Assembly (NCBI GenBank): GCA_964196015.1
Contig: CAXMRM010000213.1
Location: 1 to 36,918 of the forward strand
Reading direction: 5' to 3'
Length of the DNA: 36,918 bases
From: an uncultured Myxococcota bacterium
Lineage (GTDB): Bacteria > Myxococcota_A > Polyangia > Polyangiales > Houyiibacteriaceae
The notes under the pieces were generated by a model. The model was not told the origin of the DNA, made no database searches, and saw only the letters and a program-made list of their open reading frames with translations. This document shows, piece after piece, positions 8,771 through 14,477 of this stretch; position 1 is the stretch's first letter; each line of letters opens with the position of its first letter. The translations under genes and the position numbers were made by a program.

Positions 8771-10420
8771 ATGGAGGTTCATCCACTCGCTGGTCAGTCC
8801 GCGCCGCCCGACGCGCTCGTCGATGTCGCCAAGCTCATCGCCACCTACTACGACGGCAAGCCCGACCCCACCGAGCTGAGCCACCGCGTGAGCTTTGGAA
8901 CCTCCGGCCACCGCGGCTCGTCCCTTCGCCTCAGCTTCAACGAGGATCACATCCTCGCAACGACGCAGGCGATCTGTGACTACCGTGTTGCCGAGGGGAT
9001 CGATGGCCCGCTGTACATGGGTGTTGATACGCACGCGCTGTCAGAGCCGGCCGCGAAGACCGCTCTCGAGGTTCTTGCCGCGAACGGTGTTGAAACGTGC
9101 ATTGCGCTGGAGGGGCAGTTCACGCCGACCCCGGCTGTCTCGTTCGCCATTCTCGAGCACAACCGAAACAACGCGACCGACGCCGACGGCATCGTCGTGA
9201 CGCCGTCGCACAATCCACCCGAAGACGGCGGCTTCAAGTACAACCCACCGAACGGCGGTCCCGCGGGCACGGAAGTCACATCGTGGATCGAGCGACGCGC
9301 GAATCGGTTGTTGGCCGCCGGTCTCAAAGACGTCCGTCGCATTGTGTACGACGCCGCGCTTCGCGCCGATACGACTCACACTCACGATTTCATAGCGCCC
9401 TACGTCGAAGGACTCGATACCGTCCTCGACATGCGGGCGATTTCGAGCGCGGGCCTTCGAATTGGCGTCGACCCGATGGGCGGAGCTGGCATCGAGTACT
9501 GGCCTCGGATCGCAGAACGCTACGACCTCCGGCTCGACATCGTCAATGAGGCCATCGACCCGACATTTTCGTTCATGACGCTCGATTACGACGGGAAAAT
9601 CCGAATGGATTGCTCTTCGCCGTATGCCATGGCCCGCCTGGTCCATCTCCGAAACCGATTCGACATCGCGTTTGGAAACGACACGGATTTCGATCGGCAC
9701 GGCATCGTCACCAGCAGCTGGGGGCTTCTCAACCCGAATCACTACCTCAGCGTGGCGATCAACTATCTGTTCACCGAGCGCGGCTGGGACGAGCGCGCGG
9801 CCGTCGGAAAGACGCTCGTGAGCAGCGCGATGATCGACCGCGTGGCCAAAGCCCTCCGCCGCCGGCTCGCCGAGGTGCCCGTAGGCTTCAAGTGGTTCGT
9901 GCGAGGATTGCTCGACGGCTCATACGGGTTTGGCGGAGAGGAGAGCGCAGGCGCTTCGTTCCTGCGCAGAGACGGGAGCGTCTGGACGACCGACAAGGAC
10001 GGCATCCTCCTCAACCTCCTCGCCGCCGAGATCACCGCGACGACCGGCAGAGACCCCGGTGAGTGTTACCAAAGCCTCACCAAACAGTTCGGCGCGCCCG
10101 TGTACGCGCGCATCGATGCACCTGCGACCCCGGAGCAGAAGGCTGCCCTCGAGGGGATGAGCGAGTCGGATCTCGATGCGTCGGATCTCGCCGGCGAGCC
10201 GATCCAGCAGATGCTCACCACGGCGCCCGAGAACGACGCGCCGATTGGCGGGCTCAAGGTCACGACAGAGAACGGTTGGTTCGCCGCTCGGCCTTCCGGC
10301 ACCGAAGACGTTTACAAGATCTATGCGGAAAGCTTCGTTGGGCGCGAGCACCTGGCGTCTATTCAAAGAGAAGCCAAGGACCTGATCGGCCGCGTATTCG
10401 ACAAGAACGCGACGGCTTGA
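8771..10420 (+). CDS. pgm: phosphoglucomutase, alpha-D-glucose-phosphate specific
   Basis: Active-site loop [15 protein letters not shown], the GVDPMGGAG metal loop, GEESAG and a C-terminal [14 protein letters not shown] block. ATG 8771 was chosen; the upstream extension overlaps bfr. Confidence 0.95.
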
Positions 10421-10452: not shown

Positions 10453-11433
10453 GTGTTAGCGCTCGTAACTGGTGGTGGCGGCCGACTCGGCAACGTTCTC
10501 GTTCGACGACTCCTCGAGAACGGACAGACGGTGCGCGTGTTGGAGCCTGGCAGCCTGCCGGAGTCCCTCGCCGGCCTCGACATCGAGTTCATGTCTGGCT
10601 CGGTCCTCGACGCGGGAGACATTGGCCGGGCGACGGATGGCGCAGACGTCGTGTATCATCTTGCCGCTAAGATCGACCTAAGCCCTAAAAAAGACCCGAT
10701 GATGTACACCCTCAACGTCGAGGGAACCCGAAAGGTCGTCGAGGTGTGTCTTTCCCGTGGCCTGCGGTTGGTCCACACCAGCTCTCATCATGCGCTCGAG
10801 CGCGAGCCCCTCGATCAGCCGCTGACCGAAGACAAGCCTCTCGCCCTCAACGATAAGGGCGAGTACCACCGATCCAAAGCGATCGGCGAAACGATTGTCC
10901 TCGACGCCTGCGAGCGAGGGCTCGATGCCGTCATCGTGAACCCGGGCTCGATGATTGGGCCCTACGACTTCGAGCCGTCGATGATCGGCGCCGCGCTGAT
11001 CGACATGTACTTCGGTCGCGTCCCCGTCTTGCTCGAACTGTTGAGCGACTACGTCGATGTTCGGGATGTCGCCGACGGCATGATCGCCGCCGCCGACAAA
11101 GGCCGGCGTGGCGAGCGGTATTTCCTCACCGGTGACGTCGTCCCAGTCATGGAGATGGTGTCTCTCTACGCAGAGCTCACCGGCGCCAAAGTGCCTACCC
11201 GGGCACTGCCGCTCTGGGTGGGCTGGGTCCTGCTTCCGTTCGCCTTGCTGGGGAGCGCTGTGACCAAGAAGGAACCATTCATCACGGCCGATATGCTCCG
11301 CGCCAGCGTGTCCAACGAAGTGGTCTCCCACGACAAGGCACACCGCGAGCTTGGCTATACGATCCGCACGCTGCGCGAGTCGCTCACAGACGCGGTCGCC
11401 TGGTATCAGGAGCGCGGCTGGCTCAGCGCCTGA
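10453..11433 (+). CDS. NAD(P)-dependent epimerase/dehydratase-family SDR (possible long-chain-base/ceramide reductase)
   Basis: Rossmann motif LALVTGGGGRLG, catalytic YHRSK (YxxxK), and an extended-SDR C-terminal region. Start is GTG 10453; alternative TTG 10417 overlaps the pgm stop. The reductase role is inferred from the neighbouring ACP/oxoamine synthase genes. Confidence 0.85.
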   Translation: MLALVTGGGGRLGNVLVRRLLENGQTVRVLEPGSLPESLAGLDIEFMSGSVLDAGDIGRATDGADVVYHLAAKIDLSPKKDPMMYTLNVEGTRKVVEVCLSRGLRLVHTSSHHALEREPLDQPLTEDKPLALNDKGEYHRSKAIGETIVLDACERGLDAVIVNPGSMIGPYDFEPSMIGAALIDMYFGRVPVLLELLSDYVDVRDVADGMIAAADKGRRGERYFLTGDVVPVMEMVSLYAELTGAKVPTRALPLWVGWVLLPFALLGSAVTKKEPFITADMLRASVSNEVVSHDKAHRELGYTIRTLRESLTDAVAWYQERGWLSA

Positions 11434-11448
11434 CCCGCGTTTTCGCGG

Positions 11449-11476
11449 TTGACGCGCTGCTCGTGCTACACATAAA
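11449..11476 (+). promoter_or_regulatory. sigma70-like promoter of cysE
   Basis: TTGACG (11449-11454), 16 nt, CATAAA (11471-11476), then 6 nt to ATG 11483. Confidence 0.4.
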
Positions 11477-11482
11477 GCACCC

Positions 11483-12376
11483 ATGAGCGGAAGAGACCCC
11501 AAGCGCCATCAGGATCTCGAGGACGTGATCGAGGTCATCGCTGCCTCGTACGACGGCGACAACGAGATCAACAACCTCGACAGCGCGGCACTGCCGAACA
11601 AACGCGCGGTCACCACTGCATTCAATCACATCATGCCCGTGCTCTACATGGGATTCTACAGCACTCGCGCTCTCAACAGGACCAACCTCCGCTATGCGAT
11701 TAGCGAGCATCTGTATCCAGCGCAGGAAATATTGGTCGAGCAGATCGAACGCGCTGTTCGCTATCAAGAGCGCATGGGCCGGCTCGCCGCGAAGAAGCCC
11801 GAGGGTTGGAGCGAAGACGTCGTCCTGCGTCTGCTCGAGAAGATTCCAGAGCTTCGGCGCGTTCTCAACGCCGACGTCCGAGCCGCATACGATGGAGACC
11901 CAGCCGCCTCGAGCATCGAAGAGGTCATCTTCAGCTATCCGAGCGTGCAGGCGATCACAGCGTATCGTGTCGCGCACGAGCTCTACCTGGCCGACGTCCC
12001 CATGATTCCGCGCATCATCACCGAGCACGCGCACAGCAAGTCCGGCATCGACATCAATCCTTGCGCGGAGGTTGGCGAAAGCTTCTTCATCGACCACGGC
12101 ACAGGGGTGGTCATTGGCGCAACCGCCGTCATCGGCCGCAATGTGAAGCTCTACCAGGGCGTCACTCTCGGCGCCCTGAGTGTCTCTCGCGACGAGGTCG
12201 CTGGGCGCCGTGGCCAAAAGCGGCATCCTACGATCGAGGACGACGTCACGATTTACGCGGGAGCGTCGATTCACGGTGGAGACACCGTCATCGGCAAGGG
12301 GTCGGTCATCGGGGGCAACGTCTGGCTCACCAAGTCCGTGCCGCCCGGCTCGAAAATCTTCGGCCGTGCGAAGTAG
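11483..12376 (+). CDS. cysE: serine O-acetyltransferase (long form)
   Basis: An N-terminal SATase helical domain is followed by left-handed beta-helix hexapeptide repeats: GIDINPCAEVGESFFIDHGTGVVIGATAVIG...VTLG...TIEDDVTIYAGASI. Confidence 0.9.
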   Translation: MSGRDPKRHQDLEDVIEVIAASYDGDNEINNLDSAALPNKRAVTTAFNHIMPVLYMGFYSTRALNRTNLRYAISEHLYPAQEILVEQIERAVRYQERMGRLAAKKPEGWSEDVVLRLLEKIPELRRVLNADVRAAYDGDPAASSIEEVIFSYPSVQAITAYRVAHELYLADVPMIPRIITEHAHSKSGIDINPCAEVGESFFIDHGTGVVIGATAVIGRNVKLYQGVTLGALSVSRDEVAGRRGQKRHPTIEDDVTIYAGASIHGGDTVIGKGSVIGGNVWLTKSVPPGSKIFGRAK

Positions 12377-12389
12377 CGCCTCTGGCCAG

Positions 12390-12629
12390 TTAGCGGGCTT
12401 CGCTGAGCTTCTCTGTGACCTTGTCGTAGACAGCTTGGAGGTTGGTCAGCTCGGTGAGCTCATCCTCGGAAATCGTGACGTCGTAGTTCTTCTCGACGTC
12501 GGCAATGATCTCGATTGCCATCATGCTGTCGATGCCCAGGTCCGCGAACGGCGTATCCTCGGGGATATCCTCGACTTCCGTCACCTCGGCGATGATCTGC
12601 CTCAGCTCGTCCTTCAGCGTATCCGACAT
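12390..12629 (-). CDS. acyl carrier protein (dedicated, non-fab context)
   Basis: A 79-aa acidic protein with the phosphopantetheine attachment motif DLGIDSMMAIE. It is divergent from the oxoamine synthase gene. Confidence 0.9.
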   Translation of the reverse strand: MSDTLKDELRQIIAEVTEVEDIPEDTPFADLGIDSMMAIEIIADVEKNYDVTISEDELTELTNLQAVYDKVTEKLSEAR

Positions 12630-12637
12630 GCCGCCCG

Positions 12638-12670
12638 TATATGCTTGCGTTCGCGATTAGCGTCAAGCAT
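12638..12670 (-). promoter_or_regulatory. sigma70-like promoter of the ACP gene bracketed by a 7-bp inverted repeat
   Basis: On the minus strand: TTGACG (12666-12661), 17 nt, CATATA (12643-12638), then 8 nt to ATG 12629. Inverted-repeat arms ATGCTTG (12641-12647) and CAAGCAT (12664-12670) overlap the -10 and -35. Confidence 0.4.
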
Positions 12671-12746
12671 TTGAAAACTGGCCGGTCGACCTGTTTCGAA
12701 TGTGGTACAGACCGGAAATTACGGTACCTTGTGGCCCGCTAGACCT

Positions 12747-13976
12747 ATGAGTTGGATTTCCGAAAAGGCGCACGCTGAGCTACAGCGGGTGCGCGACGCG
12801 CAGGCCAAGCAGATCTATCCGTATTTCCTCCCTTTCGAGTCGGGCGGATTGCATACGACCATCGGCGGCAAGCCCATCGTCAACTTCAGCTCGAACGACT
12901 ATCTCGGTCTGACCAACCATCCGAAGGTTAAAGAGGCGGCCAAAGCAGCGGTCGATCAGTTCGCCTGCGGGTTGAGCTCGTCGCGTGTTCAGGCGACCGC
13001 GACCCTGCACGTCGAGCTCGAGGAGCGGCTGGCGGCCTGGTACGGCTTCGAGAAAGCCTTGATCTTCACGACCGGGTATCAAGCGATGGTCGGCACGATC
13101 ATGTCCCTAGCCGACAAAGACACAACGGTCGTCCTCGACAACTTGAGCCACGCCTGCATTCTCGACGGCACGTTCTTGGCGGCGGGGACGCCGATGCGCG
13201 CGCCCGAGGTGCGCTTTTTCAATCACAACAGTGCCAAAGCGCTCGATCGAGTCCTGAGGAAGCGCGATCGGAAGAACGCGTTGGTGATAATCGAGGGCAT
13301 CTACTCGCTAGACGGCGACGAGGCTCACATCGAGGAGTTCGTCGAGGTCTGCGCTCAGCACGAGAACGTCGCCATCGTGTGCGACGATGCGCACGGGACG
13401 GGCACTCTTGGCGCTGGCGGCCGAGGCATCGTCGAGAAGTACGGCCTCGAGGGGAAGATCCCGGTGATCATCAGCACGTTCTCGAAGACGTTTGGAGGTA
13501 TCGGCGGGATCCTCCTCGGCGACGCCGACGTGGTCGACTTCATCAAACACACCGCGCGTTCGTTCTTGTTCAGCGCATCGTTGCCGGTGCCCATCGTGGC
13601 AGCGGCCAGCACGGTCCTCGACATGCTCGAGGCTGACGGCGAAGCGTTGGTCAGCGAGCTCCACGAGAAGTCGGCCTACATGCGCAAGGGCCTCACCGAT
13701 ATCGGGTTCGACCTCGGTGACAGCAACTCGCACATCATGCCCATCATGATTCGCGAGGAGACCAAGGCGATGTTCACGCATGTGGCTCTGCGGGAAAACG
13801 GCGTGTTGATGGTTCCGATCATGTACCCCGCCGTGAAAGAGGGACAAGAGCGGCTCCGCCTCAACGTCACCCGCGGCCACAGCTACGAGGACATGGACCG
13901 GGCGCTCGACTTGCTGCGCCAGTTCGCGGACTCGTTTTCGTTGGTGGACGAGCCGGCGAAGTCGGCGGCTACTTAG
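12747..13976 (+). CDS. spt: alpha-oxoamine synthase, serine palmitoyltransferase-like (BioF/KBL family)
   Basis: NFSSNDYLGL, DDAHGTGTLGAGGRG and STFSKTFGG (PLP lysine). The N-terminal YPYFLPFES block and adjacency to a dedicated ACP favour Spt over BioF. Family assignment is secure; substrate assignment is an inference. Confidence 0.85.
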   Translation: MSWISEKAHAELQRVRDAQAKQIYPYFLPFESGGLHTTIGGKPIVNFSSNDYLGLTNHPKVKEAAKAAVDQFACGLSSSRVQATATLHVELEERLAAWYGFEKALIFTTGYQAMVGTIMSLADKDTTVVLDNLSHACILDGTFLAAGTPMRAPEVRFFNHNSAKALDRVLRKRDRKNALVIIEGIYSLDGDEAHIEEFVEVCAQHENVAIVCDDAHGTGTLGAGGRGIVEKYGLEGKIPVIISTFSKTFGGIGGILLGDADVVDFIKHTARSFLFSASLPVPIVAAASTVLDMLEADGEALVSELHEKSAYMRKGLTDIGFDLGDSNSHIMPIMIREETKAMFTHVALRENGVLMVPIMYPAVKEGQERLRLNVTRGHSYEDMDRALDLLRQFADSFSLVDEPAKSAAT

Positions 13977-14003
13977 CGAGACGGCACCGTGCCCGGGTCT
14001 CGC
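13976..14003. terminator. GC-rich hairpin between the convergent spt-like and maoC genes
   Basis: GCGAGAC (13976-13982) pairs with GTCTCGC (13997-14003) around a 14-nt loop. There is no U-tract, so function as an intrinsic terminator is uncertain. Confidence 0.3.
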
Positions 14004-14012
14004 GTCGGAGCG

Positions 14013-14477
14013 TTACTTCTTCGGGAAGTAGAGGCTGACCGTCTCGGCGATGCAGGCGGGGCGGTCTTCTCCTTCGATCTCTACCGTCACGCGGACGATC
14101 GAGAGGATGCCGCCCTTCGACTCTTCGACCGACACCACCTCTGCGCCGCCGCGGATGCGTGAGCCGACCTTCACGGGAGCGGGAAAGCGAACTTTATTGG
14201 TGCCGTAGTTCACTGCGAACTCGAAGCCGCGCACCTCAAAGACCTGAGGCATGAAGGAGCTTACGAGCGACAGCGTCAGGTAGCCGTGCGCGATGGTCGC
14301 GCCGAAAGGCCCGGTCTTCGCTCGCTCCGCGTCGACGTGAATCCACTGATGGTCCTCGGTCGCGTCGGCGAACTTGTCGACCCGATCCTGCTCCATCGTC
14401 AGCCACTCGCTGTGACCGAGGTGCTTGCCGACCGCGGCTTTGAGGTGGTGGGGGGATTCGAAAACTACTGCTGCCAT
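14013..14477 (-). CDS. MaoC-like (R)-specific enoyl-CoA/ACP hydratase (hot-dog fold)
   Basis: A 154-aa protein with the hydratase-2 motif FADATEDHQWIHVDAERA...ATIAHGYLTLS. Confidence 0.9.
   Translation of the reverse strand: MAAVVFESPHHLKAAVGKHLGHSEWLTMEQDRVDKFADATEDHQWIHVDAERAKTGPFGATIAHGYLTLSLVSSFMPQVFEVRGFEFAVNYGTNKVRFPAPVKVGSRIRGGAEVVSVEESKGGILSIVRVTVEIEGEDRPACIAETVSLYFPKK

Follow-up and report, generated by a model that had tools for sequence, protein, structure and literature searches.

A 36,918-nucleotide contig of an uncultured Myxococcota bacterium was analysed in full and is referred to here as the window. It carries a gene for a small acyl carrier protein (ACP) that faces a gene for an alpha-oxoamine synthase (AOS). 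The results point with good confidence to this pair as the first committed step of ceramide synthesis, in which an AOS resembling serine palmitoyltransferase (Spt) works with the adjacent ACP, the bacterial ceramide synthase (bCerS) and the reductase CerR being encoded elsewhere, and the pair itself being a trimmed form of a larger cassette. The AOS, a pyridoxal phosphate (PLP) enzyme, would carry out the condensation of a long-chain acyl thioester with an amino acid (most probably L-serine), which yields a 3-keto long-chain base. The specialised ACP encoded next to it is the probable carrier of the thioester, and the unlinked bCerS (a YghO/CC_1154 homologue) and unlinked CerR would then convert the base to dihydroceramide. 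The gene identities, their conservation, the exclusion of BioF and the occurrence of bCerS and CerR in relatives are direct results; serine as the substrate, acyl-ACP as the donor and ceramide as the end product are what we infer.

Most of what defines the bacterial ceramide genes (Spt, bCerS, CerR, AcpR and AasR) comes from Caulobacter, E. coli B and Bacteroidota; those of myxobacteria have only been inferred. Sphingolipids are reportedly the basis of the outer membrane in some myxobacteria.

Gene identities were assigned by Pfam and NCBIfam profile searches, with the NCBIfam scores read against the curated cutoffs. The elements at the centre of the analysis are as follows.

12629-12390, minus strand: specialised acyl carrier protein, 79 aa (PF00550 PP-binding, E 4e-17; phosphopantetheine site GIDSM)
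12630-12746, no strand: divergent intergenic region between the ACP and AOS starts, 117 bp, read from the sequence
12747-13976, plus strand: Spt-like alpha-oxoamine synthase, 409 aa (Aminotran_1_2, E 2e-51; the longest open reading frame starts from GTG 12702)

The true start of the AOS is almost certainly the ATG at 12747 and not the GTG at 12702, because the orthologues begin with MSWI at that point; the divergent spacer between the ACP and AOS therefore measures 117 bp.

The oxoamine synthase resembles Spt

The best NCBIfam match of the AOS was SerpalmtaseCFB (NF047600) with 320 bits (cutoff 640), followed closely by bioF (TIGR00858) with 316 bits (cutoff 426). Among proteins of known structure, the Spt of Sphingobacterium multivorum was the best match (247 bits), ahead of the Thermus BioF/Kbl (212 bits), E. 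coli BioF (209 bits) and a cysteate acyltransferase (207 bits). The AOS residues H150, S202, D228, H231, T259, S261, K262 and R386 were aligned with the active site of the S. multivorum enzyme, which includes the PLP-lysine and the His/Asp/His/Arg set. The roles of these residues have been described in S. multivorum Spt, where an N-terminal YxYF.P block lines the acyl pocket (PMC10196870). The YPYF..FES block, to which the original prediction had pointed, was present in the AOS and aligned with Tyr25, Tyr27, Phe28 and Pro30 of that enzyme. Since serine recognition in S. multivorum Spt is largely water-mediated, the residue-level comparison is uninformative on serine specificity.

A maximum-likelihood tree of 33 sequences, in which the single validated Spt (E. 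coli BL21) stands on a long branch, was divided by a split with SH-aLRT 97. The E. coli BL21 Spt, a group from Bacteroidota metagenome-assembled genomes (MAGs) and the myxobacterial clade fell on one side, and E. coli BioF, Kbl and all of the AOS from bio operons on the other. Delta-proteobacterial Spt enzymes have previously been grouped with those of Bacteroidetes, and AcpR/AasR homologues have been noted in myxobacteria (PMC9386255). The Bacteroidota MAG proteins (L095-L098) form a tight group of the nearest AOS relatives outside the myxobacteria and scored 388-400 bits on the CFB Spt model, whose cutoff is 640.

The ACP-AOS unit is conserved across the order

The ACP is a stand-alone PP-binding protein distinct from the housekeeping AcpP, since the NCBIfam models of the latter scored at most 35 bits on it against cutoffs of 66-106 (best: 35 against 71). 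Orthologues of the AOS with 63-93% identity were spread over the window's order (Polyangiales-type Myxococcota), in MAGs labelled Sandaracinaceae, Polyangiaceae, Labilithrix, Sorangium, Nannocystis and Myxococcaceae. When genome contigs were scanned, 80 AOS loci were obtained and mapped by tblastn; a locus was considered informative when the AOS orthologue was preceded by at least 5.5 kb of upstream DNA, which was the case for 52 of them.

In 36 of the 52 informative loci, one or more ACPs and a pair of ketosynthase (KS) genes, KS1-KS2, were located upstream of the AOS, and 28 of these 36 also carried a fatty acyl-AMP ligase. The arrangement of the window, with a short-chain dehydrogenase/reductase (SDR), cysE and the ACP, was observed at nine loci, all nine from the window's own lineage, while the AOS stood alone at four. 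Altogether, the ACP was linked to the AOS at about 45 of the 52 loci, and ACP orthologues (38-88% identity) recur upstream of the AOS cassette across the order. The conserved unit is thus [ACP with or without a second ACP and ligase] facing [KS1-KS2-AOS]. This order-wide conservation upholds the earlier proposal that the ACP and AOS form a genuine module.

The window's genus carries a trimmed form of this cassette, in which, judging from gene content, the KS pair and the adjacent ligase have been lost and the ACP faces the AOS directly. In a sister genus of the same family (G084), the ACP faces KS1-KS2-AOS, and pgm, SDR and cysE are not found there. No KS1 orthologue was detected in five near-complete congeners, where the best match (37% identity) was the housekeeping FabF. 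Similarly, the best match of the cassette ligase in the genus was only 40% identical, and no match was obtained in the complete congeners G008 and G015. No ligase was found at the window locus either. The cassette ligase itself is best matched by the NCBIfam subfamily of fatty acyl-AMP ligases that also holds E. coli AasR.

Further features of the cassette were observed at individual loci. In a locus of another lineage (L054, 3258-11212), bioB directly adjoins the ACP / ligase / KS1-KS2-AOS cassette, and pgm, SDR and cysE are absent; the closeness of bioB to the cassette recurs in the window and in L054 with no other bio gene present. In one family of the order, the AOS is followed by a 461-469-aa protein with no Pfam match (L025, 11371-12756; L026, 4314-5723), for which a search of the window's genome gave no match at E <=1e-5. 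The cassette also includes a 199-aa gene, and no mutual similarity was found between its product and the MaoC protein of the window.

Candidate partner genes of the proposed ceramide pathway

The reference cluster of E. coli BL21(DE3) (L110), taken by coordinate, consists of yghO, a fatty acyl-AMP ligase, an SDR, an ACP and spt. These genes correspond to aca (the CC_1154 homologue, bCerS), aasR, epi (CerR), acpR and spt (PMC9386255). Full-length homologues of bCerS (YghO), with about 40% identity and E values of 1e-74 to 1e-89, were identified in 29 of 31 relatives, and 17 of the 18 congeners were among those with a homologue. When genomes of at least 90% completeness were sampled across the phylum, bCerS was present in 19 of 20 genomes of the order, and the AOS orthologue in 18 of those 20. 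Outside the order, about a third of the sampled genomes carried bCerS, without this clade of AOS.

A CerR homologue directly follows bCerS in four genomes (G019, G022, G023 and G030), the two genes often sharing an operon, while bCerS stands alone in the window's genus. There, an SDR gene located elsewhere (for example G015:C6:1071460) and the bCerS-linked CerR were reciprocal best hits for each of the five other families queried. In the complete congener G008, bCerS and the CerR candidate are accompanied by just two AOS, BioF being one of them. Neither bCerS nor CerR was found within 10 kb of any of the 80 AOS loci. The only adjacency seen was in another family of the order (L124, G020:C51, 5786-8344), where bCerS is divergent from the AOS orthologue across 231 bp with no KS pair between them, on a short contig of 8.4 kb.

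As had been predicted, neither bCerS nor an acyl-ACP synthetase was found in the window. The unusual product that had been suggested from the missing bCerS was not supported, as this gene is unlinked and its homologues are carried by nearly all relatives; homologues of both partners belong to the lineage, as seen in the congeners and the order.

Exclusion of BioF

A second AOS, about 33% identical to that of the window, was present in 17 of 18 congeners. Its best model was bioF (TIGR00858, 416 bits on a truncated query), and it is located directly upstream of bioD. In the near-complete congeners, the AOS family has two members only, namely the orthologue of the window AOS and this bioF-like paralogue. 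Since the second AOS is BioF, the AOS of the window is the only candidate Spt and the only non-BioF AOS in the complete congeners. Together with the presence of bCerS and CerR in the lineage, this supports the Spt reading. Related AOS of about 35% identity, from other phyla and one Myxococcaceae MAG, were found in bioB-bioF-bioA-bioD operons.

It could be argued that the AOS is nevertheless the organism's BioF, with the adjacent ACP delivering pimeloyl-ACP and the bioB located 5 kb upstream belonging to a scattered bio cluster. No other AOS is present in the assembly of the window itself (G000), bioB lies nearby in the window and directly beside the cassette in L054, the bioF and Spt models gave almost equal scores, and the AOS contains an NFSSNDYLGL motif, which we take to be BioF-like. 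This reading is already largely refuted and has a negligible probability. The congeners carry their own bioF-bioD operon, the AOS falls short of the bioF cutoff, and the tree separates it from E. coli BioF and from all bio-operon AOS. The assembly lacks both bioF and bioD, as expected if a single contig is unassembled. The separate operon and the position on the side of E. coli BL21 Spt bear out the earlier view of an Spt-like enzyme.

Neighbouring genes

The window is contig C213 of its assembly (G000), which comprises 2.68 Mb in 297 contigs and is 79.5% complete; congener assemblies are 3.5-5.4 Mb in size. The bioF, bioD, bCerS and CerR orthologues are all missing from G000, though they are found in almost every congener. 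The nearest database proteins to those of the window came from Myxococcales / Polyangiales MAGs of the SG8_38 type. The genes around the ACP-AOS pair are listed below.

About 8771-10420, plus strand: pgm (TIGR01132, 889 bits)
10453-11433, plus strand: extended SDR (Epimerase family, E 4e-30; best NCBIfam match HpnA, 241 bits against a cutoff of 368), outside the conserved module
11483-12376, plus strand: cysE-like hexapeptide acetyltransferase, 297 aa, with a long N-terminal part (TIGR01172, 150 bits against a cutoff of 211)
14477-14013, minus strand: MaoC-type hotdog dehydratase/hydratase (PF01575, E 1e-26)
15102-14527, minus strand: DUF502 protein
Downstream, plus strand: EamA transporter

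The SDR, cysE, ACP, AOS, MaoC and DUF502 genes named in the original prediction were all confirmed in place by the Pfam and NCBIfam searches. The remaining genes of the window are housekeeping genes, including tmk, ubiA, an aminotransferase gene, bioB, bfr, aroC, priA, def and fmt. The pgm, SDR and cysE genes follow one another closely in the same direction, separated by 32 and 49 bp, and this run converges on the ACP gene; the SDR probably shares an operon with the other two.

Members of the genus are collinear over an entire 14-kb housekeeping block that extends from the aminotransferase gene to aroC. Genus-level synteny was therefore rejected as evidence of linkage, as it reflects kinship alone and is uninformative on function. 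Beyond the window's lineage, SDR, cysE and MaoC were absent from all of the approximately 43 informative AOS loci, so that the synteny of these genes with ACP-spt in related genomes broke down, an outcome that the original prediction had named as speaking against it. The MaoC gene is variable even among congeners, several of which have 1.8-3.8 kb of extra genes between it and the AOS, and in two it is inverted. At L027 (11255-12932), L013, L014 and L016, one or two inserted genes (342 aa and 184 aa, no Pfam match) lie between the AOS and MaoC; these are absent from the window. The suggestion that cysE, MaoC and DUF502 belong to the pathway was not supported, as they flank the AOS only in the window's lineage.

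The SDR had been proposed as a CerR-type reductase, and this candidate was rejected, being an orthologue neither of CC_1164 / ECD_02852 nor of the bCerS-linked SDR in related myxobacteria. It was only 25% identical over 175 aa to the CerR homologue of E. coli BL21, it was not among the top matches of the G023 CerR in G000, and its orthologues (at least 67% identity) are confined to the genus, where a different gene is the reciprocal best hit. Linkage of this SDR with spt or bCerS was not seen beyond close relatives.

The cysE-like protein shares 32% identity with E. coli CysE over the catalytic half. It is probably a housekeeping serine O-acetyltransferase (SAT), because its gene is the only CysE-family match in the complete congener G008, which has two cysK copies above the cutoff. 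One congener holds a second cluster (G012:C9:276846-279685) in which an SDR paralogue (39% identity), a cysE paralogue and cysK stand side by side; from this cluster, SDR and cysE may be a functional pair of cysteine/sulfur metabolism rather than of lipids. Overall, pgm, SDR, cysE, MaoC and DUF502 are probably neighbours only, with housekeeping or sugar- or cysteine-related functions.

Alternative explanations

Several observations weigh against the assignment of the pair to ceramide synthesis. The AOS scored below the cutoff of every curated Spt model (NF047600, NF047599 and NF047603: 320 against 640, 282 against 500 and 222 against 670 bits, respectively), these models having been built on CFB, beta- and alpha-proteobacterial enzymes. 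The tree holds no capnine/sulfonolipid (CapB/SulA), ALAS or CqsA references, and its one validated Spt has a long branch. Outside the myxobacteria, the AOS is most closely related to Bacteroidota MAG proteins (42% identity), which also fall below the CFB Spt cutoff. The ACP did not resemble E. coli AcpR significantly (BL21 AcpR: 29% identity over 35 aa), and a dedicated acyl-ACP synthetase was not evident in two complete congeners. Moreover, neither bCerS nor CerR turned up in the 79.5%-complete assembly to which the window belongs, so that the pathway argument rests on the congeners.

The low scores on the Spt models are also the starting point for the view that the AOS uses cysteate, glycine or alanine instead of serine, giving a sulfonolipid/capnine-type or 1-deoxy-type amino-ketone lipid. 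Its sister group consists of Bacteroidota AOS of unassigned function, from a phylum that makes sulfonolipids. Its substrate loop (SSSR.V) is one residue shorter than that of S. multivorum Spt (AGSRFL), and structures of cysteate-C-fatty acyltransferase reached 207 and 183 bits, not far under the 247 bits of Spt. A non-serine substrate is nonetheless unlikely, as the ceramide-specific partners bCerS and CerR are nearly universal in the order, the complete congeners have no other non-BioF AOS to supply them, and S. multivorum Spt remains the best structural-sequence match. The co-occurrence of bCerS and CerR with the AOS also disfavours a role in making an amino-ketone that is diffusible or specialised (for instance a signal of the CqsA type or a pyrrole precursor of the RedL/PigH type) instead of a membrane lipid, with the ACP serving a small secondary-metabolite pathway as its stand-alone carrier. 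The ancestral cassette, with its ligase, two ACPs and KS/KS-like pair upstream of the AOS, does resemble a dissociated RedL. However, the 63-93% identity and near-universal presence across the order are typical of core metabolism, the genus kept the ACP and AOS after the KS pair was lost, and the CqsA model reached only 181 bits, which makes this explanation very improbable.

A similarly low probability applies to the compact lipid locus of the original prediction, in which SDR, cysE, ACP, AOS, MaoC and DUF502 act together, the SDR as the keto-reductase, on a product unlike dihydroceramide (an unsaturated or hydroxylated base, or one whose head group comes from O-acetylserine or another donor). 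The six genes lie close together, all of the examined genomes of the genus share their arrangement, bCerS and the canonical CerR are not neighbours in the genus, and the second SDR-cysE-cysK cluster in G012 hints that SDR and cysE can travel together. Against this, the genus synteny extends over the entire housekeeping block, the AOS loci outside the lineage lack SDR, cysE and MaoC, and MaoC is displaced or inverted in congeners. In addition, the SDR is a genus-only gene unlike CerR, whose orthologue lies elsewhere, and a complete congener with cysK contains no SAT-family gene other than cysE. A compact five-gene locus with an unusual product is therefore not supported. Two narrower variations on the ACP-AOS pair were considered. 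As the cassette is stripped to the ACP and AOS, with no dedicated acyl-ACP ligase in two complete genomes, the ACP might receive its acyl chain straight from the fatty-acid synthase or from a non-homologous enzyme recruited for this step, in a ligase-free, synthase-coupled route into sphingoid bases; we regard this as having an outside chance. Less likely still is that the genus-specific SDR and SAT were recruited, with a base or head group differing from that of dihydroceramide.

Significance

Compared with its relatives, the window gives a clear assignment: a single AOS clade, together with its own ACP, is the only possible Spt of the entire order, and bCerS and CerR are unlinked. The pair appears to be an ordinary-looking member of the bacterial Spt-ACP type, in a lineage where it has been uncharacterised so far. 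The loss of the KS pair and ligase in the genus is a natural deletion experiment and shows these cassette genes to be accessories of a core formed by the AOS and ACP. The results further caution that genes packed closely together in a small MAG need not form a pathway.

A literature search on the myxobacterial spt locus (including MXAN_6634-6639) returned PMC9386255 as the sole relevant paper, and a paper on polyketide synthase (PKS)-derived sphingolipids makes no mention of myxobacteria. The bioF-bioD operon, the evidence on bCerS and CerR, and the loss of the KS pair in the genus are new points of the present analysis.

Comparison with known systems

BioF (8-amino-7-oxononanoate synthase, TIGR00858) shares its fold and chemistry with the AOS, its model scored nearly the same as the Spt model, and bioB lies 5 kb away. 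It differs in that the AOS is below the cutoff and apart in the tree, and that the genus has a bioF-bioD operon of its own.

The order-wide cassette, [fatty acyl-AMP ligase, ACP, ACP] facing [KS, KS-like, AOS], is closely related to the window pair. Its AOS is 63-78% and its distal ACP 38-64% identical to those of the window, and in both the genes diverge around the same intergenic region. The difference lies in KS1, KS2, the second ACP and the adjacent ligase, which are missing from the window's genus.

The CFB-type Spt represented by the S. multivorum enzyme (PDB 3a2b and 8guh; NF047600) is the best PDB and NCBIfam match to the AOS. The YxYF.P block and the equivalents of His138, Ser185, Asp210, His213, Thr241, Ser243, Lys244, Ser273 and Ala274 are kept (PMC10196870). 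In contrast, the AOS reached half of the curated cutoff (320 against 640 bits), its substrate loop departs from Gly80-Phe83 and lacks one residue, and Leu takes the place of Met271. Another difference is that CFB enzymes use acyl-CoA and have no dedicated ACP.

The AcpR-Spt system of Caulobacter crescentus and E. coli BL21(DE3), which includes AasR, CerR/epi and bCerS/aca (PMC9386255), differs from the window in several respects. The window AOS is only 34% identical to BL21 Spt, its ACP is not demonstrably an AcpR orthologue, and the two genes are divergent and not co-transcribed. At the locus in the window's genus there is no ligase, CerR or bCerS, and the adjoining SDR is not the CerR homologue. 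The Caulobacter-like Spt-ACP arrangement that had been proposed stands for the ACP and the Spt-like AOS, and not for the reductase, cysE, MaoC and DUF502, which are neighbours in this lineage only. In both systems, a small specialised ACP adjoins an Spt-family AOS; the window's lineage carries homologues of bCerS (about 40% identity) and CerR, and the cassette ligase of related families belongs to the subfamily of AasR.

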